From assembly GCA_035486275.1 (NCBI GenBank), contig DATHNG010000165.1, forward strand, positions 8,686 to 72,685: a stretch of DNA of 64,000 nt. Direction: 5' to 3'. Made by a program: the position numbers and the translations under genes. Within the stretch, counting starts at the first letter, position 1; each line of letters begins with the position of its first letter. Of the stretch, positions 1,872 through 46,171 are shown one piece after another. The notes under the pieces were generated by a model. That model had not been told where the DNA came from. It made no database searches and saw only the letters and a list, made by a program, of their open reading frames with translations. The DNA is from Bacteroidia bacterium. Lineage in GTDB: Bacteria; Bacteroidota; Bacteroidia; JABEUT01.

Positions 1872-3218
1872 ATGAAGAAGCGTATTCTTGTTTTATGTTG
1901 TGTTTTATGCCATTTTTTTTCAATCGGTCAACGAAAAGATACGTTAACAAAGGATTCGTTGAAATTGCCTTTCACCATATCTGAAACAGAGCATTTATCG
2001 GATGAAGACCTGAAAAATAAAAAAGAAGGGGCGTATCTTACAGGTGTACCTGATATGAGTTCTGACCCGGTAAACGGTTTCGGAATTGGAGCTGAGGCTC
2101 AACTCTATTTTGATGGTAAAAGAAATGACCCTTTTTTTGCATATACAGCGTATAGAGCTAATATTAATTTGTCGGCATTTTATACCACAAAGAGCGAAAG
2201 AGAATTTCAACTGGTATGGGATGTGCCCTATATTTTTAACTCTAAATGGCGCCTGAGGGGCCAATGTGAATATATGGTTAACCCAAATTATTTGTTTTTT
2301 GGGGTAACAGAAAAAACCTTGAGACCATTAAGCTATTATCCTAACAATGACTCTACAAAGGCAATAGTTAATAATGCTTCTTATGATAACTATGAAAATA
2401 ATCAGGTGGGCAGTATTTCCAATTACAATACATTTCAGCAGGAAGAAAAGTCATTTAATGTCAGCATGGAACATTCATGGCTAGATGGAAAATTGAGGAC
2501 TCTTATTGGTTATGAGATTGCATTTGATAATATTACAACTCCGCTTGATAATAATTCACTTCTGCATCAGCAAGCCGAAGAAGGATTAGTTACGGGTTTT
2601 GGTGCTGATAGAGGAACTTTACTACAGTTAGGCGTAATTTACGACACACGTGATCTTGAACCAGACCCGTCTTCAGGAGCATTTGCTGAATTTACCAATG
2701 AATTTTCAAATGGAGCATTGGGCTCGGAACATAATTTCGATCGTATTTTTATTCACTACAATTACTATCATAGCCTGTTTAAAGATGTATTTAAAAAGTT
2801 TGTTTTTGCAGGGCGGATCGGAATGGGCTATACTGTAGGTGATGCACCATTTTATGAATACATGGATCAATGGAGTTCAGAAGGAGATATTAATGGATTA
2901 GGTGGACCACAAACCTTAAGAGGTTATGTGCAAAGCAGGTTTGTAGCACCTGTAATGGGGTTTGCTAATATAGAGCTCCGTTATCGTTTTTTGCAGACTG
3001 ATATCTTAAAACAACATTTGGCTTTTTCTGTAATTCCTTTTTTCGATACAGGTGGTGTATGGGATTATTTGTACCGGATTTCGTATTTAAAAAATCTCCG
3101 ATATTCTGAAGGCCCCGGAATGCAGATTGCATGGAACGAAGATACTATCCTGCGTTTCGATTATGGAATATCTGCTGAAGGAACCCAATTCTACTTTGGT
3201 ATTGGCCAGATTTTTTAA
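1872..3218 (+). CDS. Outer-membrane beta-barrel protein (Omp85/surface-antigen-like)
   Basis: Signal peptide 'MKKRILVLCCVLCHFFSIGQ', alternating beta-strand pattern and terminal aromatic '...GIGQIF'. ATG 1872 is preferred over the track GTG at 1836 because a perfect -7 box lies at 1818-1825. Confidence 0.5.
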   Translation: MKKRILVLCCVLCHFFSIGQRKDTLTKDSLKLPFTISETEHLSDEDLKNKKEGAYLTGVPDMSSDPVNGFGIGAEAQLYFDGKRNDPFFAYTAYRANINLSAFYTTKSEREFQLVWDVPYIFNSKWRLRGQCEYMVNPNYLFFGVTEKTLRPLSYYPNNDSTKAIVNNASYDNYENNQVGSISNYNTFQQEEKSFNVSMEHSWLDGKLRTLIGYEIAFDNITTPLDNNSLLHQQAEEGLVTGFGADRGTLLQLGVIYDTRDLEPDPSSGAFAEFTNEFSNGALGSEHNFDRIFIHYNYYHSLFKDVFKKFVFAGRIGMGYTVGDAPFYEYMDQWSSEGDINGLGGPQTLRGYVQSRFVAPVMGFANIELRYRFLQTDILKQHLAFSVIPFFDTGGVWDYLYRISYLKNLRYSEGPGMQIAWNEDTILRFDYGISAEGTQFYFGIGQIF

Positions 3219-3262
3219 GCACAATAAACCACAAGAATAATTTATATGACTGCTTTTCATCT

Positions 3263-3862
3263 TCAATTCTTACACGAACACGCCGGAGAGAAAAAAATAG
3301 TGGTTTTAGGTAAATAGCTTTGAATAGTTGTTTGTGTTTCCTGGTTTATAAGTATGTCTCTGAGGTCGAATTCTTTAAGGTTCGTGAGTTTACTCAATGC
3401 TGCCGGAAAATAAGCAATGTCATCGCCCCACATATCAAGGTATCTTAGTTCTGTAAGTCCTCCTATAGCATCGGGTATTGCATCGAGAGGGTCTCTGTTC
3501 ATTATGAACCATTTCAAATGTTTCAACATACCTATTTGTGGTTCAAGCGAATCAATATCGTTATGAGAAAGTATGAGTGTTTGCAGTGAGGAAAGCTCAC
3601 TTATCCAGGAAGGGACTGAGCTTAATTTGTTTTTACTGAGATCTAGGTATTGTATATTTTTAAATTGCCTTATTTCTTCAGGAAACGTAGTAAGTTTCTT
3701 CTTGGTAAGTACAAGCTTCAAAACCTTATCAGGGTTGGCTTTTGCTAAACCCAGATCGCTATAGCCTTTCATAGTATCTAACGAAAGTGAATCGAGTAAT
3801 GGAGATTGGGCGCTACCTAGCTTAAAAACGATAAGTAATAAAAACAGCACACCCCTTTTCAT
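3263..3862 (-). CDS. Secreted leucine-rich repeat protein
   Basis: Signal peptide, then repeated LxxLxLxxNxL units ('LDLSKNKLSSVP', 'LILSHNDIDSL', 'LDMWGDDIAYFP'). Confidence 0.75.
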   Translation of the reverse strand: MKRGVLFLLLIVFKLGSAQSPLLDSLSLDTMKGYSDLGLAKANPDKVLKLVLTKKKLTTFPEEIRQFKNIQYLDLSKNKLSSVPSWISELSSLQTLILSHNDIDSLEPQIGMLKHLKWFIMNRDPLDAIPDAIGGLTELRYLDMWGDDIAYFPAALSKLTNLKEFDLRDILINQETQTTIQSYLPKTTIFFSPACSCKN

Positions 3863-5149: not shown

Positions 5150-5293
5150 GTTCTTTATGTATTGATTCGAACATAAAATTATACTGACTAAGAACCATTT
5201 CGGGTTTATTTCTGTGAAAGGGTAAAAATTTGTGTCCAATTGGCTTTCAGGCTCTTTCAAATACAGTTTTGGTAATACCTTTGGCAGTAAGTT

Positions 5294-7859
<2,566 letters not shown>

Positions 7860-7900
7860 TGCTTAATTCTAAATGTTGAATTTTGAATGGCTGATTAAGC

Positions 7901-7928
7901 ATTTAACATTTAACATTAAACATTAAAA
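7901..7928. repeat. Tandem heptamers (atttaac)2(attaaac)(attaaaa) in the atpD-atpC spacer
   Basis: Read directly: catttaacatttaacattaaacattaaaatt, ending 2 nt before the atpC ATG. Preceded by an 8-bp inverted repeat tgcttaat...attaagca (7860-7901). Confidence 0.6.
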
Positions 7929-7930
7929 TT

Positions 7931-8167
7931 ATGTATTTAGAAATATTAACACCGGACAAAAAGCTTTTCAGCGGAGATGCTGAGTATGTTGATGTACCCG
8001 GAGAAGCAGGCAGAACAGGAGTATTGAGAAATCACGCTCCTATGATCAGTGCGCTTAAAGGTGGAAAAGTTAAGGTGCGTGATATGGCGAAACAAGAACA
8101 CTTTTTTGAAATTAAAGGTGGTATTATGGAAGTTCGCAACGATAAGGTTATAGTACTTGCAGAATAA
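7931..8167 (+). CDS. atpC: F0F1 ATP synthase subunit epsilon (short form, beta-sandwich domain only)
   Basis: 78 aa directly after atpD; 'LEILTPDKKLFSG...VPGEAGRTGVLRNHAPM'. Too short to include the C-terminal helical hairpin of long epsilon subunits. Confidence 0.85.
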   Translation: MYLEILTPDKKLFSGDAEYVDVPGEAGRTGVLRNHAPMISALKGGKVKVRDMAKQEHFFEIKGGIMEVRNDKVIVLAE

Positions 8168-8190
8168 TTAAGCGGTTAATTTATTTTGTT

Positions 8191-8219
8191 AAAAAGGAGG
8201 CCTATGGCCTCCTTTTTTG
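8191..8219 (+). terminator. Rho-independent terminator after atpC
   Basis: aaaaaggaggcc-tat-ggcctccttttt: 12-bp stem, 3-nt loop, T run. Confidence 0.8.
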
Positions 8220-8226
8220 TGCTCTT

Positions 8227-8252
8227 TATTAATGTAAACAGATACATTAATA
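8227..8252. promoter_or_regulatory. Perfect 10-bp inverted repeat tattaatgta-N6-tacattaata
   Basis: Lies between the atpC terminator and the -7 box of the lipoprotein gene. Confidence 0.3.
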
Positions 8253-8283
8253 CTTGAGTAACACCGACTTTCAATTAAAAGTA

Positions 8284-8291
8284 TAAATTTG
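8284..8291 (+). promoter_or_regulatory. -7 box TAAATTTG upstream of the lipoprotein gene
   Basis: Perfect motif, 31 nt before ATG 8323. Confidence 0.4.
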
Positions 8292-8322
8292 TCTAAAACT
8301 GTTTAAACCTAAAAACATTACA

Positions 8323-8820
8323 ATGAAAAACAAGTACTTAATTATTATGTTATGCTGTTGCAGCATATTATTCACCGCCTGCCCTTACAATGCACCTGTA
8401 TCAATTGACGATCCGAAAGCAGTACACGTAGAACACAAACTTGTTGGCAAATGGCAGCAACGTAGCTCTGAAGATGAAACCTATGTGGTTAAAGACCTGG
8501 ATGAGCACACCTATTCTATTATAGAGAAACACAAAAAGAAAGAAGGTTCTGAGAAACAAGATGACGAAGTGTATAATGGCTTTCTGTCAGAAGTAGATGG
8601 AGTTAAGTTTTTGAACCTGTACAAGCCTGATGAAGATCCTAAGACCTACTATTTCTATAAGATAGAGTTCAATGATGAAACCGGTGGATTTACCTTGTAC
8701 CCTATAACTGAATACATAACCGAGAAATTCACCACATCTGAAGATCTGAAGAAGTTCGTTAAGCAATATAAAGACCTTAGTTTCTTCTATGGCTCTAAAG
8801 AAGAATATATTAAAAGCTAA
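8323..8820 (+). CDS. Hypothetical lipoprotein
   Basis: 'MKNKYLIIMLCCCSILFTAC' is a lipobox. It has its own -7 box (8284-8291) and terminator (8842-8872). No recognisable family. Confidence 0.6.
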   Translation: MKNKYLIIMLCCCSILFTACPYNAPVSIDDPKAVHVEHKLVGKWQQRSSEDETYVVKDLDEHTYSIIEKHKKKEGSEKQDDEVYNGFLSEVDGVKFLNLYKPDEDPKTYYFYKIEFNDETGGFTLYPITEYITEKFTTSEDLKKFVKQYKDLSFFYGSKEEYIKS

Positions 8821-40148: not shown

Positions 40149-40172
40149 CATAGTTTTGGGGGAGTTTATGTG

Positions 40173-40210
40173 AGACACAGTATGCTTAATTGCTACTGTG
40201 TCTTTTTTTA
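40173..40210 (+). terminator. Rho-independent terminator after peroxiredoxin
   Basis: agacacagta-(11 nt)-tactgtgtct: perfect 10-bp stem followed by T7. Confidence 0.8.
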
Positions 40211-40528
40211 TTCTTTTTTCTGCATTTGTTACCCGTCTTTATATTGTTAATCAGTATGTTTAGGGGTAACACTGTAACCCGTCTTTTGTTGTTATTACTA
40301 TTTCCCAAAACCACAATACAATGCCAAAAGTATTTCTCAGGAATTAATTATTTACAATACAAATTTCAGCAATTTGTGCCTACTATAAAATAAAATGTTT
40401 ACTATTTATCAACAGGCCATATTCCTACTCAATCTTAACCTAAAATCTCAATATGGGTTCATTGATAAATACAATGAAATACAATTAGACATTTTAAGTT
40501 AATTTAGTTTGTAATTAATTGATTATAA

Positions 40529-40549
40529 TATATTTGTATGTTATTTTTG
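40529..40549 (+). promoter_or_regulatory. Two tandem -7 boxes (TATATTTG, TATTTTTG) inside the AT-rich islet leader
   Basis: Perfect motifs at 40529-40536 and 40542-40549, about 260 nt upstream of islet gene A. AT-rich DNA raises the chance expectation. Confidence 0.3.
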
Positions 40550-40810
40550 TTGCGTGTCAAAAAAAGGCTAATAACTGGCAAGTTTTAGAAAAAGAATGAC
40601 AATATTGTGGCTTTAAACAACTGAGGAAACGTCAAAACGCATTTAAGTACTTATTTATGTATCTTATTGCACGTTCTTGTATTTAAATGAAAAATATTTC
40701 TTATGTTGTGTATGTAAACTCATCAATTGATAATTTAAAAGTACTATTTAGAAAAACTCACTATGCATCAAATTTTATTGTGCCGTTGTTGTAGAGACAA
40801 CAATGATTGG

Positions 40811-41317
40811 ATGAAATATTTAATTCCACTTATTGGTTTCATTTTGGCTGGGGTATTTGCATTATTGAAAATCAAATCAAATACTGTTTCTGCTTCTAGA
40901 ATTAAATGGATTCTTGAGATTACCGAAGCGTTGAGCGAGTATTTGGTTTCCATAAGTAAAGGATTATTAGATTATCAGAATTATAAGATAGATTATCAGA
41001 AAGATGAGTTGGATTTTAGGACGAAAAGAGAAAGTTATCGTAGATTCACTTTGTCAATAAATAAATCTATAAGATTGGGATACAAAATACAGTTGTATCT
41101 CAATTCAAAAAATAAGTTGCAAAATAATCTTGAAATGGCAATAATGGAAATTAATCATATAATACAAGAGATTTTTGACAATGATTTATCACATATTGAG
41201 AAAATTGATGAATACAGAACAATGATTGATAATAAACTGTACACTATTGTGTCTATTTCAAAAGAGGTTATTGAAGAAGAAAGAATAAAATCGAAAAGAC
41301 TAATAGATCTTGATTGA
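40811..41317 (+). CDS. Hypothetical single-pass membrane protein with helical cytosolic domain (AT-rich islet gene A)
   Basis: ATG 40811 gives 'MKYLIPLIGFILAGVFALLKIK', followed by Lys/Glu/Ile-rich helical sequence. No family recognised. The alternative start at 40763 adds 'MHQILLCRCCRDNNDW'. Confidence 0.5.
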   Translation: MKYLIPLIGFILAGVFALLKIKSNTVSASRIKWILEITEALSEYLVSISKGLLDYQNYKIDYQKDELDFRTKRESYRRFTLSINKSIRLGYKIQLYLNSKNKLQNNLEMAIMEINHIIQEIFDNDLSHIEKIDEYRTMIDNKLYTIVSISKEVIEEERIKSKRLIDLD

Positions 41318-41367
41318 AGGTTGTATCAAGCTATTGCTAATATAGATTACATATAACTGACTGGAGC

Positions 41368-41952
41368 ATGAAAATTAATTTGAATATTAGAAAAATAGCT
41401 AGGTGGCTTGCAACTTTTTTTATTGCTTGGCTTGGGAAAAAAATACTTGATGCTACAGGAATATTTGAGAATGTTACCGTATTTCTTTCAAAAATGTATA
41501 CGAAGAATGAAGTGATAGGATATTTAAACAAAGAATATCCTATTTGGAAAATTCTTTTTGGGGCTACCCTTCTTTTGATTGGTTACTGGTTGACAAGTTT
41601 AATTTTTCGGCTACTCTTTGGCAAACAAAATAAATATAATAAGAAGAGAGAGCAATTAAAAAAATGGAATAAACAGGAAATGGGTGGTATTTTATGGAAG
41701 TGGGATGTAGAATTTGATGATTCAGGCAGGCCTTTTATTTCTAATTTGCAGCCCTATTGCATTAGCCACGGAGAGCCTCCGCTGAAAATGTCTCTTGGAG
41801 GGTTTTTGGGCGCCGCTGGTGATTATGTTTGTCCTATACCGGGATGTCGAAGCGGTGTATCACTAAATTCTTATCAGCTAAACAGTATTCAAAAAGCAAG
41901 ACAATATATAGAATCACACTTAGAAAGTACTTGGGAGAAAATAAACAAATAA
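41368..41952 (+). CDS. Hypothetical membrane protein with C-terminal Cys/His domain (AT-rich islet gene B)
   Basis: A strong TM helix at residues ~59-84, a basic linker, then 'ILWKWDVEFDDSGRPFISNLQPYCISHGEPP...YVCPIPGC'. No family recognised. Confidence 0.5.
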   Translation: MKINLNIRKIARWLATFFIAWLGKKILDATGIFENVTVFLSKMYTKNEVIGYLNKEYPIWKILFGATLLLIGYWLTSLIFRLLFGKQNKYNKKREQLKKWNKQEMGGILWKWDVEFDDSGRPFISNLQPYCISHGEPPLKMSLGGFLGAAGDYVCPIPGCRSGVSLNSYQLNSIQKARQYIESHLESTWEKINK

Positions 41953-41994
41953 AATAATTGTTTTTAAGTATTACTTATATTGTCTATGTAGTTT

Positions 41995-43236
41995 TTACCT
42001 CACCTCTCCATCCACAATCACCGTCCCAATCAAATTACTACCAAAAGAGTAAGGTATAAAGCTGTAACTTGGTATGGCTTGGGTGATAAACAGGTTCGCT
42101 TTCTTTCCAATGGTAATTGTCCCATGTGTTTTATCCAGGCCCATTGCATAAGCAGAGTTGACAGTAGCTGCATTTATAGCTTCCTCGGGTAGCATTTTCA
42201 TTTTCACACAAGCCAGGGAAAGTATAAAGGCCATTCTGCCTGAAGGAGATGAGCCAGGGTTATAATCTGTCGCTAATGCAATTGGTAAACCGGCATCTAT
42301 CATTTTACGTGCAGGCGGGTAATGTAAGCCTAAGAAGAAGGCTGTGCTTGGCAATAGGGTAGGCATGGTTTTTGATTTCAGCAGGCAATCTATTTCGGCA
42401 TCTCCGGTAAATTCAAGGTGGTCCACTGATAGGGCATTGTTCTTTACTCCCACTTGTATTCCCCCTGAATAATCTAATTCATTGGCATGTATCTTTGGCT
42501 GTAAGCCATATTTCAAGCCTGCCTGCAAAATAGCATCGGTTTCTTCAATGGTGTAAAAACCACGGTCGCAGAACACGTCGCAATAATCAGCCAGTTTTTC
42601 TTTCGCAATGACAGGTAACATTTCTTTAATAATAAGGTCAATATATTCCTGCCTGTTTTGCTTGTATTTAGTAGGCATGGCATGTGCGCCCAAAAAATTA
42701 GCCTTGATGGTTAAAGGAGAATGTTCTTTCAGTTTTTTAATAACCCGCAACATCTTTAACTCCCCATCAACCGATAATCCGTAGCCGCTTTTTATCTCCA
42801 CCCCACCTGTGCCATACTTTGTAATTTCGTTCAGGCGGTGCATAGCGCTATCAAAAAGTTCATCCTCCGATGTTTTGTTCAGTCGCTCTGCAGAGTTCAA
42901 TATACCACCACCATTGCGGGCAATTTCTTCGTAGCTCAATCCTTTAATGCGGTCAACAAACTCACCTTCACGGCTGCCTGCATATACAATATGCGTATGC
43001 GAATCGCACCACGATGGAAAAACAAATTTACCCTTAGCATCTATAACTTTATCGAAACCTGCTTTAGCCGGGATGCCATCTTTCATTTCACCCATGCCTG
43101 AGATCAGACCATTTTCAGTACTTAGCCATGCGTTATGAATACAGGGTAGGGCGCTCATTTCCTTGCCCGATACTTTTTCCTGTGGCCTTGGATTTGCTCC
43201 AACTATTGTCTTTATATTTTCAATAAGTATTTTCAT
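41995..43236 (-). CDS. hutI: Imidazolonepropionase
   Basis: 'WCDSHTHIVYAGSR', 'LGAHAMP', 'KIHANELD', 'SVDHLE', 'ALATDYNPGSSP'. Confidence 0.92.
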   Translation of the reverse strand: MKILIENIKTIVGANPRPQEKVSGKEMSALPCIHNAWLSTENGLISGMGEMKDGIPAKAGFDKVIDAKGKFVFPSWCDSHTHIVYAGSREGEFVDRIKGLSYEEIARNGGGILNSAERLNKTSEDELFDSAMHRLNEITKYGTGGVEIKSGYGLSVDGELKMLRVIKKLKEHSPLTIKANFLGAHAMPTKYKQNRQEYIDLIIKEMLPVIAKEKLADYCDVFCDRGFYTIEETDAILQAGLKYGLQPKIHANELDYSGGIQVGVKNNALSVDHLEFTGDAEIDCLLKSKTMPTLLPSTAFFLGLHYPPARKMIDAGLPIALATDYNPGSSPSGRMAFILSLACVKMKMLPEEAINAATVNSAYAMGLDKTHGTITIGKKANLFITQAIPSYSFIPYSFGSNLIGTVIVDGEVR

Positions 43237-43241
43237 ATCAA

Positions 43242-43249
43242 CAAATTTA
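43242..43249 (-). promoter_or_regulatory. -7 box TAAATTTG immediately upstream of hutI
   Basis: Perfect motif on the minus strand, 5 nt from the ATG at 43236. Confidence 0.35.
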
Positions 43250-43377
43250 AGATAAAAGCTATAATGGAACGCGGATGACGCGGATCTGGCGGATTAAATG
43301 AGACTATCCCTTGTCGATGTATAATAAAACATGATTTAACAGGCTCAGTATAACTTTAAGGAGATGCCACTGGCAAA

Positions 43378-43509
43378 GATTCCTCACTCCGTTCGGAATG
43401 ACAGGCAGGCTTTTTTACCTGGTGGGAAGTATGGCGACAGGCGAAGCCTGTCGCCATACTTCCCATGAAAATTAAATAATAATTGTCATTCCGAACGGAG
43501 TGAGGAATC
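43378..43509. repeat. Perfect 26-bp inverted repeat (IR2) gattcctcactccgttcggaatgaca / tgtcattccgaacggagtgaggaatc
   Basis: Arms at 43378-43403 and 43484-43509. IR3 sits in the middle. Confidence 0.85.
43424..43464. repeat. Perfect 19-bp stem, 3-nt loop hairpin (IR3) gggaagtatggcgacaggc-gaa-gcctgtcgccatacttccc
   Basis: Read directly; nested within IR2. Confidence 0.85.
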
Positions 43510-43515
43510 TCAATC

Positions 43516-43591
43516 TCTGCCCCAAACCCCTAAAGGGGCTTAAGAAAATACACTATATTGTATTGAAGCCCCTTTAGGGGTTTGGGGCAGA
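43516..43591. repeat. Perfect 26-bp inverted repeat (IR4) tctgccccaaacccctaaaggggctt / aagcccctttaggggtttggggcaga with 24-nt spacer
   Basis: Arms at 43516-43541 and 43566-43591. Each arm contains its own cccc-taaa-gggg mini-hairpin. Confidence 0.85.
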
Positions 43592-43678
43592 ATCCATCAC
43601 CTGTATTGATCCGTCGAATCAGCGTCACCTGCGTTCTATAAGCTAAAATTCGCTAAAATTGCATGAGAGAAAAAGAAA

Positions 43679-46171
43679 ATGGAGGAACGTGCTACATGGT
43701 TTGCGGATGTTATACTACCCCTGGCGGTACCTAACCTGTATACATACAGGATTCCCTATGATTCGAATGACCTTGTAAAACCCGGGCAGCGAGTGGTTGT
43801 GCAGTTTGGTAAGAATAAGCTGTATATGGCTTTGATAAAGCACCTGCATCAAACTCCGCCTAAAGATTACCAGGCCAAGTATATACAGGACGTGCTGGAC
43901 GCAGTACCTATTGTAAATGAAATGCAACTGAATTTCTGGGACTGGATTGCTGCGTACTACGTATGCACTCCCGGAGAAGTTATGAATGCTGCCTTACCGG
44001 GTGGTTTGCGTTTTAGCAGTGAAACGAAGATTATCCGTAATGAAGAGTTTGCCCTTGATGAGGTGGAACAGGATTTCTTTACGGATAAGGAATGGAAACT
44101 GGTAATAGCATTGGATGTAAAAAAAGAAATGACCATTGATGAAGCGGCAGAAGCATTAGGCATAAAGACCGTTCATCCTATCATTCAGACATTGCTGGCA
44201 AAAGGTTTTGCGCAGGTAAAGGAAGAAATAAAAGATAGTTACAAGCCCCGCACAGAATCGTTCGTTAGAATACCGGCCTCGGTATCGGAAGCTGATCTGC
44301 AACAGGCCATGAATGACCTGGAGAAGAAAGCATTTAAGCAATTACAATTGCTTATGGGGTATATGTCATTATCAAACTGGCATACGGGCAATGATATTGA
44401 TGTGAAGAAAAGCAAGTTATTAGCTCATACGGGATGCACCGCACAAACATTAGACCAGTTAGTGAAGAAGGGAATAATGGAAGTGTATGTGAAGGAAGTT
44501 TCGCGTTTACCAAGTTCAAATAAAGCATTGGAGTCTGCAAACGACCTGGCCGATTTTCAGCAGGTGGCCTATGATGCTATACAAGAACAGCTGAAGGAAA
44601 AAGAAGTGATTCTGTTGCATGGTGTAACATCGAGCGGAAAGACGGAGATATATATGAAACTGATGGAGCAGGTTATTGCAAAAGGTAAACAGGTATTGTA
44701 TCTCTTGCCCGAAATTGCACTTACAGCCCAGTTAGTTCAGCGCTTAAAAAAACGCTGGGGCGATAATGTCGGGGTGTATCATTCAAAGTATAGCGACAAC
44801 GAAAGGGTAGAGGTGTGGAATACATTGGCTAACCCTAAGGACAAAACCTATTCTATAATTGTAGGAACACGTTCTTCATTGTACCTGCCTTTCTCTAACC
44901 TTGGGCTTTTAATAATTGACGAAGAGCATGACAGTTCATATAAACAACAAGACCCTGCTCCGCGTTACCATGCGCGCGATTCTGCTATTTACCTTGCTCA
45001 TGTGCATAAGGCAAAGGTTATATTGGGTTCGGCTACGCCATCAATAGAAAGCTATTACAATGCTTTACAAGGCAAATACGGATTAGTTGAATTAGCCACA
45101 CGCTATGGAGGTATAGAAATGCCGGAAATAGATGTACGTGATGTGAGTGAAGAGAAGCGAAAGAAATTAATGAAGTCATTGTTCTCGCCTTTTCTGCTGA
45201 CTAATATTGAAGAAGCGCTGAATAAAAAAGAACAGGTAATATTATTTCAGAACCGAAGGGGCTTCGCACCATTTATTGAATGCAATGTGTGCGCACATGT
45301 GCCGCAGTGCATTAATTGCGATGTTAGTTTGACCTATCATAAAAAAGCTGATCTGCTGCGTTGTCATTATTGCGGTTATTCAACAAGTTTGCCAAAAATA
45401 TGCCCTGCATGCGGTAGCCCGGGTATGCATGTAAAGGGTTTTGGGACGGAGAAAGTAGAAGAAGAGCTGGCCGTATTTTTTCCACAGGCGCGCATTGCCC
45501 GCATGGACCTGGATTCAACCCGTGCAAAGAATTCGCACTCAAAAATAATAAGCCAGTTTGAAGATAGGGAAGTGGATGTGTTAGTGGGTACACAAATGGT
45601 AACCAAGGGACTCGATTTTGATAATGTAAGTGTGGTGGGTGTGCTCAATGCTGATTCAGGTTTGCATTTCCCTGATTTCCGTTCACCTGAAAAAAGCTAC
45701 CAGTTAATGGCGCAGGTAAGTGGCCGTGCTGGTAGGAAGAATAAGCGTGGTAAGGTTATTATACAAACCAATAGCCCTGATCATCCTATCATTCACCAGG
45801 TGGTGAAGAACGACTACATTGGCATGTATAAGGAACAGATAGAAGAGCGGAAAAAGTTTTCATATCCACCATTTACACGTTTAATTGAAATAACACTCAG
45901 CCAGAAAAACCAGGATGACCTTGATGCTGTATCGCCTGACCTGGCAATAGAGCTAAAAAAGCGGTTTGGTGAAGAACGTGTGCTGGGGCCTGAATACCCT
46001 ATAGTATCGAAAGTGAATAATTATTTTTTGAAAACTATTTTACTGAAAGTAGAAAAGGAAAAATATTCGCAGAAAGTAAAAGCCCTGGTGATGGAAGCGC
46101 TAAATGAATTTTACCATAAGGGCAAAGAATATAGCCGCACCCGCATTAAAATTGATGTGGATCCGCAGTAA
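43679..46171 (+). CDS. priA: Primosomal replication-restart helicase PriA
   Basis: Walker A 'GVTSSGKT', 'IIDEEHD', and a Cys-rich insertion 'CNVCAHVPQCINCDVSLTYHK...CHYCG...CPACGS'. Confidence 0.95.
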   Translation: MEERATWFADVILPLAVPNLYTYRIPYDSNDLVKPGQRVVVQFGKNKLYMALIKHLHQTPPKDYQAKYIQDVLDAVPIVNEMQLNFWDWIAAYYVCTPGEVMNAALPGGLRFSSETKIIRNEEFALDEVEQDFFTDKEWKLVIALDVKKEMTIDEAAEALGIKTVHPIIQTLLAKGFAQVKEEIKDSYKPRTESFVRIPASVSEADLQQAMNDLEKKAFKQLQLLMGYMSLSNWHTGNDIDVKKSKLLAHTGCTAQTLDQLVKKGIMEVYVKEVSRLPSSNKALESANDLADFQQVAYDAIQEQLKEKEVILLHGVTSSGKTEIYMKLMEQVIAKGKQVLYLLPEIALTAQLVQRLKKRWGDNVGVYHSKYSDNERVEVWNTLANPKDKTYSIIVGTRSSLYLPFSNLGLLIIDEEHDSSYKQQDPAPRYHARDSAIYLAHVHKAKVILGSATPSIESYYNALQGKYGLVELATRYGGIEMPEIDVRDVSEEKRKKLMKSLFSPFLLTNIEEALNKKEQVILFQNRRGFAPFIECNVCAHVPQCINCDVSLTYHKKADLLRCHYCGYSTSLPKICPACGSPGMHVKGFGTEKVEEELAVFFPQARIARMDLDSTRAKNSHSKIISQFEDREVDVLVGTQMVTKGLDFDNVSVVGVLNADSGLHFPDFRSPEKSYQLMAQVSGRAGRKNKRGKVIIQTNSPDHPIIHQVVKNDYIGMYKEQIEERKKFSYPPFTRLIEITLSQKNQDDLDAVSPDLAIELKKRFGEERVLGPEYPIVSKVNNYFLKTILLKVEKEKYSQKVKALVMEALNEFYHKGKEYSRTRIKIDVDPQ

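Follow-up and report, generated by a model that had tools for sequence, protein, structure and literature searches.

Nested palindromic repeats between hutI and priA in a soil Bacteroidia bacterium: a probable hotspot for insertion and recombination

Introduction

Why is the space between two divergent housekeeping genes occupied by palindromes that are nested in one another? The question is raised by a 64,000-nt stretch of DNA (positions 8,686 to 72,685 of contig DATHNG010000165.1, assembly GCA_035486275.1; the whole stretch is called the window) from an uncultured soil Bacteroidia bacterium. The window is gene-dense and has a G+C content of 38.6%. Within it, hutI and priA point away from each other on either side of a 442-bp spacer (43237-43678), and this spacer contains four inverted repeats (IR), IR1 to IR4. 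The repeats belong to families, their stems show compensatory changes, their presence varies between related genomes, and their arms stay constant while the loops drift. The explanation that we favor, and consider reasonably probable, is that the spacer is a long-lived hotspot of insertion and recombination, where three unrelated kinds of palindromic repeats resembling repetitive extragenic palindromic (REP) sequences have accumulated between divergent core promoters as selfish or neutral passengers.

Inverted repeats in the hutI-priA spacer

A preliminary description of the spacer, made from its sequence, reported four inverted repeats, and these exist: three are perfect (IR2, IR3 and IR4) and one is imperfect (IR1). 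Their positions are collected in Table 1. The perfect 26-nt arms of IR4 are exactly as first described. The arms of IR2 are also perfect but are 27 nt long rather than 26, and the perfect stem of IR3 with its GAA loop has 20 nt rather than 19. For IR1, direct reading gives the 22 complementary positions of 28 that had been counted before; 200 dinucleotide shuffles of the outer 227 nt, with the inner repeats taken out, gave a mean of 16.1 and a maximum of 18. The description of the IR1 arms as GCGGAT triplications applies cleanly to the left arm, but the right arm is degenerate. The statement that the spacer consists almost entirely of inverted repeats was too strong, as palindromes and repeats are both absent from 82 nt (43295-43376) and from several linkers. 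The two short spacers that flank IR3 within IR2 (19 and 18 nt) are not complementary to each other, as had been noted.

Folding of the whole spacer as RNA gives -219.4 kcal/mol for the plus strand (z -20.8 against shuffles) and -211.3 kcal/mol for the minus strand (z -17.7). With DNA parameters the values are -25.9 kcal/mol for IR3 (z -11.7), -34.4 kcal/mol for IR4 (z -10.0) and -59.7 kcal/mol for IR2 and IR3 together (z -17.9). No further copy of the arms was found in the rest of the window. The region is not a CRISPR array, since the repeats are inverted rather than direct, and the sole direct-repeat family is a 14-nt match in two copies.

Could the palindromes have been created by mis-joined metagenomic reads? 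Several short-read contigs of relatives do break within the spacer, but an assembly artefact is exceedingly unlikely. The spacer and its flanks are identical, base for base, in an ENA contig, a JGI contig has the same hutI-priA spacing of 442 bp, and an 859-nt Logan contig spans 42900-43711 with zero differences. Related strains carry the same modules with few substitutions, and the same families are found in isolate genomes.

Table 1. Positions of the repeats, flanking genes and predicted promoters in the window
Feature	Position	Strand	Remarks
hutI, imidazolonepropionase (left flank)	41995-43236	-	TIGR01224, E 1.1e-123, 412.9 bits; reads away from spacer
Predicted hutI core promoter, TAAATTTG box	43242-43249	-	5 nt upstream of ATG; matches TAnnTTTG
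IR1 left arm, three 9-nt GCGGAT units GAACGCGGAT GACGCGGAT CTGGCGGAT	43267-43294		18-mer AACGCGGATGACGCGGAT recurs elsewhere
Unique non-palindromic DNA, 82 nt	43295-43376		No repeat found; single-copy depth in soil metagenome X1; not alignable to L002
Indel block (82-nt unique DNA and IR2/IR3 composite)	43297-43517		L002 has ~47 unrelated nt in its place
IR2 left arm, TGTC-tagged REP-like hairpin TGTCATTCCGAACGGAGTGAGGAATCT	43377-43403	-	Covariance model R1, 45.4 bits, E 4e-7
Spacer between IR2 left arm and IR3, 19 nt	43404-43422		Direct reading
IR3, private perfect 20-bp hairpin, G-rich 5' arm, GAA loop	43423-43465	+	Centre of IR2/IR3 composite; stem 43423-43442 / 43446-43465
Spacer between IR3 and IR2 right arm, 18 nt, AT-rich	43466-43483		Direct reading
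IR2 right arm, TGTC-tagged REP-like hairpin	43484-43510	+	Covariance model R1, 46.6 bits, E 2e-7
IR4, dimer of CCCCAAACCCCTAAAGGGGCTT repeat	43516-43591		Arms 43516-43541 and 43566-43591; loop 43542-43565
IR1 right arm, degenerate units ATCCGTCGA ATCAGCGTC ACCTGCGTTC	43609-43636		Outer part conserved in L002 and L004
Predicted priA core promoter, TAAAATTG box	43654-43661	+	17 nt upstream of ATG; one mismatch to TAnnTTTG
priA, primosomal replication-restart helicase (right flank)	43679-46171	+	TIGR00595, E 9e-183; reads away from spacer

The spacer in related genomes

The arrangement of priA and hutI is conserved across the clade. At the same place the relatives hold none, one, two or three types of module, or whole genes (Table 2), which bears out the early suggestion that the spacer is an insertion hotspot. 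Empty sites, which had been proposed as something to look for, are present in L172 and L170. Since relatives manage with 84 bp, about 330 bp of the window spacer appear to be dispensable. The spacer of L002 aligns with that of the window at 43237-43296 and 43518-43678 only, and the block with IR2 and IR3 is absent. The preliminary idea of one palindrome opened by another fits IR1, which is a compact hairpin in L168 and is split in L002 and in the window, but it does not fit IR3 within IR2, as discussed below. Together the relatives provide a natural series of palindrome build-up, from the empty site to a single palindrome, which is split by a second and then by a third.

Table 2. The priA-hutI spacer in the window and its relatives (HutI identity is measured against the window copy)
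Genome	HutI identity	Spacer	Content
L172	74%	84 bp	No module
L170	82%	113 bp	No module
L344	88%	~185 bp	Compact palindrome, CACTAAG units
L168	85%	187 bp	Compact IR1-type hairpin, ACACGGAT units, z -5.5
L345	86%	193 bp	Short unit arrays around IR4
L002	96%	268 bp	IR1 around IR4
L169	84%	364 bp	CACAGAG/CACGGAG arrays around IR4
Window	100%	442 bp	IR1 around IR4, plus IR2/IR3
L004, L005, L171	88%, 86%, 80%	1.5-2.1 kb	Extra genes

The long spacers contain a 316-aa Por_Secre_tail protein in L004 (8636-9586), a 404-aa protein without a family in L005 (8655-9869) and an insert of ~2.1 kb in L171 (~2000-3650). The slot downstream of hutI is variable too. In the window (40149-41994) it holds two open reading frames (ORFs; 184 and 194 aa) that match nothing in Pfam or NCBIfam, in L002 (11243-13647) and the P0004 contig an RVT_1 reverse transcriptase of 485-492 aa, in L005 (11317-12131) an ORF6N-domain gene and in L345 (3743-4390) a DUF3575 gene.

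The TGTC-tagged hairpin of IR2

Each arm of IR2 is a copy of a small hairpin, and IR2 is a tail-to-tail (TT) dimer because the tags of the two arms point inward. The unit reads TGTC (tag), ATTCC-GA-N, CGNAG (apex), N'-GA-GGAAT and CT. The arm pattern TCATTCCGANCGNAGNGAGGAATC has matches in at least 120 genome stretches from many phyla. Among the matches listed, the hosts are Acidobacteriota, Chloroflexota, Planctomycetota, Proteobacteria, Patescibacteria, Verrucomicrobiota, Cyanobacteriota, Bacillota, Bacteroidota and a Nanoarchaeota metagenome-assembled genome (MAG), and the isolates include Hymenobacter lutimineralis KIGAM108, Leptolyngbya PCC 6406 and Alkalitalea saponilacus. The pattern also occurs in 33 viral-contig stretches. 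Homology between IR2 and the other genomes is limited to the 27-29-nt arm. The early proposal that the arms belong to short palindromic repeat families present in Bacteroidota is supported, and the IR2 arm reaches well beyond that phylum.

Conservation around and within the hairpin is strong. In 138 copies, position -1 is G in 99%, position -2 is T in 82% and C in 12%, and the last C is followed by T in 77%. The same copies show covariation between positions 9 and 15, with G...C in 88, A...T in 38 and C...G in 9. Loci of the family also use complementary stems other than ATTCC, with 70 such hairpins against 3-6 for non-complementary controls; these stems are ATTCT/AGAAT, ATTTC/GAAAT, ATCCT/AGGAT, ACCCT/AGGGT, ATCCC/GGGAT and ATGCT/AGCAT. 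In an alignment of 52 sequences the five outer pairs were imposed by selection and hence are no evidence of pairing, but the inner pair, which was not used in the selection, is paired in 47 of the 52 with 16 double changes (GC 29, AU 9, CG 6). Two tandem G.A positions are conserved in the stem, and the apex is G-CGNAG-C in 64% of copies. The apex of the window arms is ACGGAGT, which is closed by A-T and not by G-C. The part of PMC13037366 that concerns GCGNAGC and GCGAAGC describes them as extraordinarily stable DNA mini-hairpins.

How abundant is this repeat? A scan with the covariance model R1 over 184.6 kb of DNA (the window and relatives) found the two IR2 arms as the only confident copies; the sole other signal was a 12-bit remnant in the spacer of L004. 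The preliminary description had named uniqueness of the arms as a point against a repeat family. They do occupy a single locus in the 184.6 kb of this clade, but the families are shared across genomes. On the sequences scanned, these are cross-genome families that are not high-copy in this part of the clade. In soil metagenomes the k-mers of the IR2 right arm are 50-130x deeper than the flanks, and the TGTC hairpin is one common short repeat of soil communities. It shows no consistent orientation relative to genes. Matches in cultured phages are 20-25 nt long and at chance level (E ~0.8), plasmids gave no match, and a literature string search with the IR2 arm returned unrelated primer matches only.

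Several further observations concern this hairpin. Over positions 43455-43528 of the window, the summed contig depth in soil metagenomes X1, X2 and X4 is 370-960 at the IR2 right arm and 5-7 in the flanks, and contigs of relatives break at the hairpin. In L120 (~2160-2250), L047 (~3630-3715), L026, L113, L107 and L110 the full hairpin is preceded by one to three tandem partial copies, which consist of the 5' half and the upstream flank with a period of 17-38 nt (for example tttgtcattccgaac-N9 repeated). The pattern resembles the outcome of slippage or template switching at the hairpin. In Acidobacteriota (L010, L019, L032, L033, L036, L057, L122) the hairpin lies inside a longer conserved repeat with an upstream motif of roughly CAGGCTGCGGAAAAA-N12-TTTTG, and these repeats mostly form head-to-head (HH) dimers in which the GC stem of the second arm is extended. 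The hairpin also travels on viruses, as it is present in a set of related phage-like contigs (L129, L132, L136, L137, L140, L146, L147) that have large proteins of 963 and 579 aa in common.

The IR2/IR3 composite

IR3 had been taken for a palindrome inserted into the loop of IR2. This is not borne out, as the same tripartite layout recurs in other Bacteroidota genomes with unrelated central hairpins. The layout consists of an arm, 17-26 nt, a perfect or near-perfect hairpin of 16-22 bp, 17-26 nt and the second arm. It is found in the window, in L117 (Alkalitalea saponilacus DSM 24412, 5747-5953), L102 and L094 and, truncated, in L071; in L064 the layout is the same but the loop is larger. The G-rich arm of the central hairpin always lies 5' of the plus arm and the apex is of the GGC-NNN-GCC type, but the sequence differs in every case. 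IR3 itself is single-copy by sequence matches and metagenome depth, and its apex GGCGAAGCC contains the GCGAAGC mini-hairpin sequence. An 18-mer of IR3 has one viral match, which is non-palindromic and lies in apparently coding sequence; it was treated as chance and IR3 was rejected as a repeat family. Because the layout recurs with unrelated centers and IR3 is single-copy, IR2 and IR3 are best regarded as one composite unit.

Among dimers of the TGTC family, 6 TT and 1 HH were counted at Bacteroidota loci against 11 TT and 61 HH in other phyla (Fisher p 3e-4). A gapped viral scan for more TT dimers (GGAATGACA N60-90 TGTCATTCC) gave 14 matches, and all 14 are chance 9-mer pairs in coding DNA, because the pattern is too short. 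The TT composites sit between convergent genes (L117 and L094) and between divergent genes (L102 and the window), which argues against a role tied to the direction of transcription.

The composite (134 nt) and the adjoining unique DNA (82 nt) make up a block of about 220 nt. In a related strain represented in two other soil metagenomes, hutI has diverged by ~9%, but the block has at most 2 differences in 230 covered nt (binomial p 8e-8). The block therefore looks recently acquired or recently exchanged.

The IR4 and IR1 families

IR4 is built from the repeat CCCCAAACCCCTAAAGGGG. The family pattern CCCCWAACCCCTAAAGGGG was found in 84 viral-contig stretches, and Draconibacterium mangrovi is one of its carriers. 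Members are singletons or inverted dimers with AT-rich spacers of ~25-35 nt. The arms are invariant in L002, L169, L345 and the window and in the viral loci L127 and L256, but the loops and flanks are unrelated. In the related strain (two soil metagenomes) the 24-nt loop of IR4 has 5 substitutions and a 2-nt deletion, and the 52 nt of the arms have 1 change. In viral loci L248-L325 a CCCCTAACCCCTAAAGGGG motif usually follows directly after a stop codon, and its flanks (AAAGAA...GATAAGA) are conserved. Its orientation is that of both neighbor genes in 35 cases and opposite in 15, which hints at a strand-specific role of the motif in those phages.

The 18-mer AACGCGGATGACGCGGAT of the IR1 left arm is present without change in 6 viral-contig stretches, 2 of which are Flavobacterium prophage regions. 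It is always preceded by GG and followed by more GCGGAT units, often then by TGTCAT... hairpins. The IR1-type unit sequence GGAACGCGGATGACGCGGAT is also found in Flavobacterium prophage regions, and a homologue of the right-arm array is located upstream of priA in L168. Within the window and relatives L001-L005 the IR1 and IR4 family patterns are confined to this spacer. Literature string searches with the IR1 and IR4 sequences gave nothing relevant.

A prophage-like locus of Flavobacterium rivuli DSM 21788 (L164, 1040-2480) carries an AbiJ_NTD4 (abortive-infection-like) gene bracketed by composite inverted repeats of ~200 nt. The repeats contain GCGGAT-unit (IR1-type) arrays, a T-run and a CCCCTAACCCC...GGGG module, and the left copy is tandemly duplicated.

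Such an arrangement suggests another origin for the stack. The stack could be what remains of a single composite mobile element or cassette site, similar to a transposon or a miniature inverted-repeat transposable element (MITE), with IR1 as its terminal inverted repeats and the interior as exchangeable cargo. In L164 the outermost part of the repeats around the AbiJ-like gene is the same GGAACGCGGATGACGCGGAT and the CCCCTAACCCC...GGGG module is present as well, the Por_Secre_tail gene of L004 lies between IR1-like remnants, and another contig of metagenome X1 joins an IR1 unit to an IR2-type arm via 30 nt. However, the extra gene of L005 lies outside a compact unit-array palindrome, the compact palindromes of L168 and L344 have no cargo, and the unit arrays at the same site differ in sequence among relatives. 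The interior in the window is single-copy, no transposase was found within ~5 kb, and no convincing target duplication was seen. Transposon ends with cargo thus fit L164 and perhaps L004 but not L005, L168 or L344, and we consider this origin unlikely for the spacer and keep it as a rival only.

Promoters, transcription and regulation

The Bacteroidota -7 promoter consensus is TAnnTTTG. Boxes that resemble it lie close to the start codons of both genes (Table 1). The hutI box is found at the same place in L002, L168, L169, L170, L344, L345, L347 and L005, and GCTAAAATTGC upstream of priA is conserved in L002, L004, L168, L169, L172 and L344. Both boxes are kept across relatives regardless of what separates them. 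By this prediction, the stack (43267-43636) would lie upstream of both core promoters with its outer ends at about the -33 positions.

Is the stack an RNA? Transcription of the spacer into a small RNA, a leader or a bidirectional terminator or insulator would fit the extremely stable fold of both strands. The central hairpins of L117 and L102 keep their pairing via G.T on the strand bearing the downstream plus arm, and the excess of co-oriented IR4-type motifs in viral contigs (35 vs 15) points the same way. These roles, which the preliminary description had raised, found no support. No hairpin followed by a T-run was found on either strand between 43000 and 43900, and the stack lies upstream of both conserved promoter-like boxes of genes that point outward. 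Rfam 15 gave no match at gathering score in the window; at E values up to 10 only generic microRNA-hairpin models appeared, and in 18 other loci no Rfam match was located on the TGTC-family copies. A known structured RNA family, the other possibility named at the outset, was accordingly not found in the spacer, nor did ARAGORN find a transfer RNA there. Modules come and go among close relatives, the TGTC hairpin and its composites have no fixed relation to gene direction, and no RNA run contains the spacer region. A structured RNA is very unlikely.

The stack could also have a regulatory or architectural role in cis. The repeats could be kept for binding of host proteins or to absorb supercoils between the divergent promoters. 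In that case the 9-nt arrays of IR1 would resemble operators or iterons, and the TGTC hairpin would bind gyrase, IHF or a nucleoid protein, as has been reported for the REP sequences and bacterial interspersed mosaic elements (BIMEs) of E. coli. Transcription of hutI and priA would then be tuned or uncoupled by the stack. At both promoters the predicted -33 position is directly adjoined by an IR1 arm, and L002, L168 and L344 share the outer ends of these arms, GGAAC...GTTCC. Exact arms in IR4 and IR2 with diverging loops and flanks are the pattern expected under selection on the arms, and a conserved host factor would explain a TGTC hairpin that is near-identical in very distant phyla. On the other hand, close relatives have no module at all (84 and 113 bp) or have other units there (CACTAAG, CACAGAG, ACACGGAT). 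The same 18- to 27-mers also turn up in phage contigs, beside genes of unrelated function and between gene pairs of either convergent or divergent orientation, and no dedicated regulator gene is nearby. A regulatory role is improbable in our judgment.

Origin and significance of the stack

How might the stack have formed? In the hotspot explanation IR1 would once have been a compact hairpin, an imperfect palindrome of 9-nt GCGGAT-type units, that was later split open. IR4, as an inverted dimer of the CCCCAAACCCCTAAAGGGG repeat, would have lodged within it. The IR2/IR3 composite, two inward-tagged TGTC REP hairpins round a private G-rich perfect hairpin, would have arrived jointly with the 82 nt of unique DNA as one block. 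The modules would act as DNA, in the form of single-strand hairpins or cruciforms, and not as genes or RNAs. The units may be copied or exchanged in trans, either by an HUH/Y1-type enzyme that recognizes single-strand hairpins or by recombination between repeat copies. The single-stranded center of an existing palindrome may be a favored landing site, which would give the stack its nested look. The effect on hutI and priA is probably small, and the repeats are most likely selfish or neutral passengers. No transposase was found within ~5 kb of the spacer, and the flanking neighbors are housekeeping genes.

Several points weigh against this explanation. The state of L002 is a replacement (221 nt vs ~47 nt) and not a clean insertion. 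No convincing target-site duplication was seen; a 3-nt CAA on both sides of IR2 is within chance and is not found in L117 or L102. At ~150 loci no recurrent protein family lies beside the hairpins, and only kinase paralogues and one related group of phage contigs cluster. Distant hairpin pairs (L047, L015, L065) were considered as the ends of a transposase gene but enclose an ordinary dehydrogenase, a PHA synthase or no ORF. One locus with these repeat families in 184.6 kb of the clade is few, as classical REPs are high-copy per genome. The arms could also be kept exact in distant lineages by some host function, such as the binding of proteins, rather than by selfish spread, and that the stack is not transcribed is a prediction from the promoter-like boxes. 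A single IR2 arm is not predicted to be stable by nearest-neighbor DNA folding (-1.5 kcal/mol, z 0.5). Such folding misses the hairpin because G.A pairs are not modelled, and the proposed arm hairpin is supported by covariation and by what is known of the stability of G.A and GNA motifs, not by thermodynamic prediction.

The TGTC hairpin hardly varies between Bacteroidota, Chloroflexota, Patescibacteria and an archaeal MAG. A machinery that acts on single-stranded DNA and spreads horizontally could use it as its recognition module, or it could be a site for a universal replication or repair factor; the three-hairpin unit of the Bacteroidota would be the product. We regard this as quite unlikely. 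If it were true, each event would create the central palindrome afresh, for example through snap-back synthesis, and this would account for a palindrome that is perfect in every case but has a different sequence each time. The IR1 and IR4 families would then be further substrates that mark the sites of exchangeable cassettes, including defence genes such as the AbiJ-like gene of L164.

The bearing on annotation of this genome is slight: the region is non-coding repeat DNA that lies between two housekeeping genes, and neither a gene nor an RNA should be annotated in it. The repeats create spurious small ORFs in the window (43356-43468 and 43500-43628, with the peptides CHSERSEESL, IPHSVRNDR and CPKPLKGL), and peptides from such ORFs are likely to surface as hypothetical proteins in automatic annotation. 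Three other intergenic regions of the window, 5261-6164 (904 nt), 7860-8322 (463 nt) and 40149-40762 (614 nt), have none of the three repeat families and no strong inverted repeat. As such repeats break short-read assemblies, a model like R1 is practically useful. More broadly, the locus points to a little studied REP superfamily without a known transposase in far more phyla than reported, and to a distinct Bacteroidota form of the TGTC superfamily with its tags inside and a private central hairpin. The two companion families, IR1 and IR4, are absent from the searchable literature and apparently undescribed; they co-occur with the TGTC hairpin and flank variable genes.

Comparison with known repeat systems

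Which known repeats do these modules resemble? The closest match for IR2 is the CGTC-tagged REP superfamily, which includes Neisseria dRS3 (CGTC-1) and Rickettsia RPE-4 and RPE-6 (Di Nocera, De Gregorio & Rocco 2013, BMC Genomics 14:522, PMC3733652). In the sections of that paper that describe the family, the tag is often TGTC, the stem has 8-9 bp and opens with A-T and T-A, the loop has 4-5 nt and a short tail has the consensus CCA. Dimers are mostly HH (tags outside) and rarely TT, with spacers of 20-100 bp that may hold small stem-loops. The same sections give no associated transposase, five phyla and tens to thousands of copies per host genome, mostly intergenic.

Set against this published description, the IR2 arms appear to fit the CGTC/TGTC-tagged superfamily in tag, loop and lack of a transposase. 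They have an unpaired 5' TGTC tag, a 5-nt loop (CGGAG in the window, CGNAG in the family) and no adjoining transposase gene, and the family forms singletons and inverted dimers whose spacers, as in the published repeats, have 20-100 bp and may include small stem-loops. The stem ATTCC-GA-A / T-GA-GGAAT has 8 positions and opens with A-T and T-A, but positions 6-7 are conserved G.A/A.G and not Watson-Crick. A short unpaired 3' tail is present but reads C-T (T 77%) where the published consensus is CCA. Other differences are the two tandem G.A positions with the GCGNAGC-type family apex, and a copy number of just two in the window and relatives. IR2 is a TT dimer; outside the Bacteroidota the 61 HH and 11 TT dimers are as the family description in PMC3733652 has it. 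The TGTC hairpin spans many more phyla than the five reported there for CGTC REPs.

A second comparison is with REPINs, which are doublets of GTAG-tagged REPs moved by a single-copy Y1 HUH transposase, the RAYT (PMC3116915, PMC2817692, PMC6006769). Like a REPIN, IR2 has two inverted hairpin units that form a larger hairpin, it is non-autonomous and intergenic, and recognition as a single-strand hairpin is likely. Unlike a REPIN, its tag is TGTC and not 5' GT[AG]G, and no RAYT was found among the window genes checked or beside ~150 copies of the family. REPINs are lineage-specific, whereas the TGTC hairpin is nearly identical across phyla. TnpA_Y1 proteins of subclass 2.6 (Bacteroidetes) and class 3 (foot CnGA) are flanked by "atypical" hairpins (PMC6006769), but the supplements of that paper that were searched contain no sequence that would link them to the TGTC motif. 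The TGTC and IR3 apices resemble the d(GCGNAGC) and d(GCGAAGC) mini-hairpins as these are presented in PMC13037366; the latter are a physico-chemical motif and not a family of genetic elements.

With MITEs the modules share a length of 134-370 bp, terminal inverted repeats, a non-coding nature and presence or absence between strains. They differ from MITEs in that the arms alone recur, the interior (the 82-nt segment and IR3) is single-copy, and there is neither a clear target-site duplication nor a parent insertion sequence.

In Neisseria, intergenic mosaic elements (NIMEs) are blocks bounded by dRS3. The hutI-priA spacer resembles these and the BIMEs of E. coli in that several kinds of palindromic modules share one intergenic region, their content varies by strain and the arms bound variable blocks. 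It differs in that three unrelated families are nested rather than arrayed, in its Bacteroidota host and in having one cluster per >180 kb instead of many in each genome. With these differences, the stack is an unusually dense yet essentially ordinary REP/BIME-like cluster.

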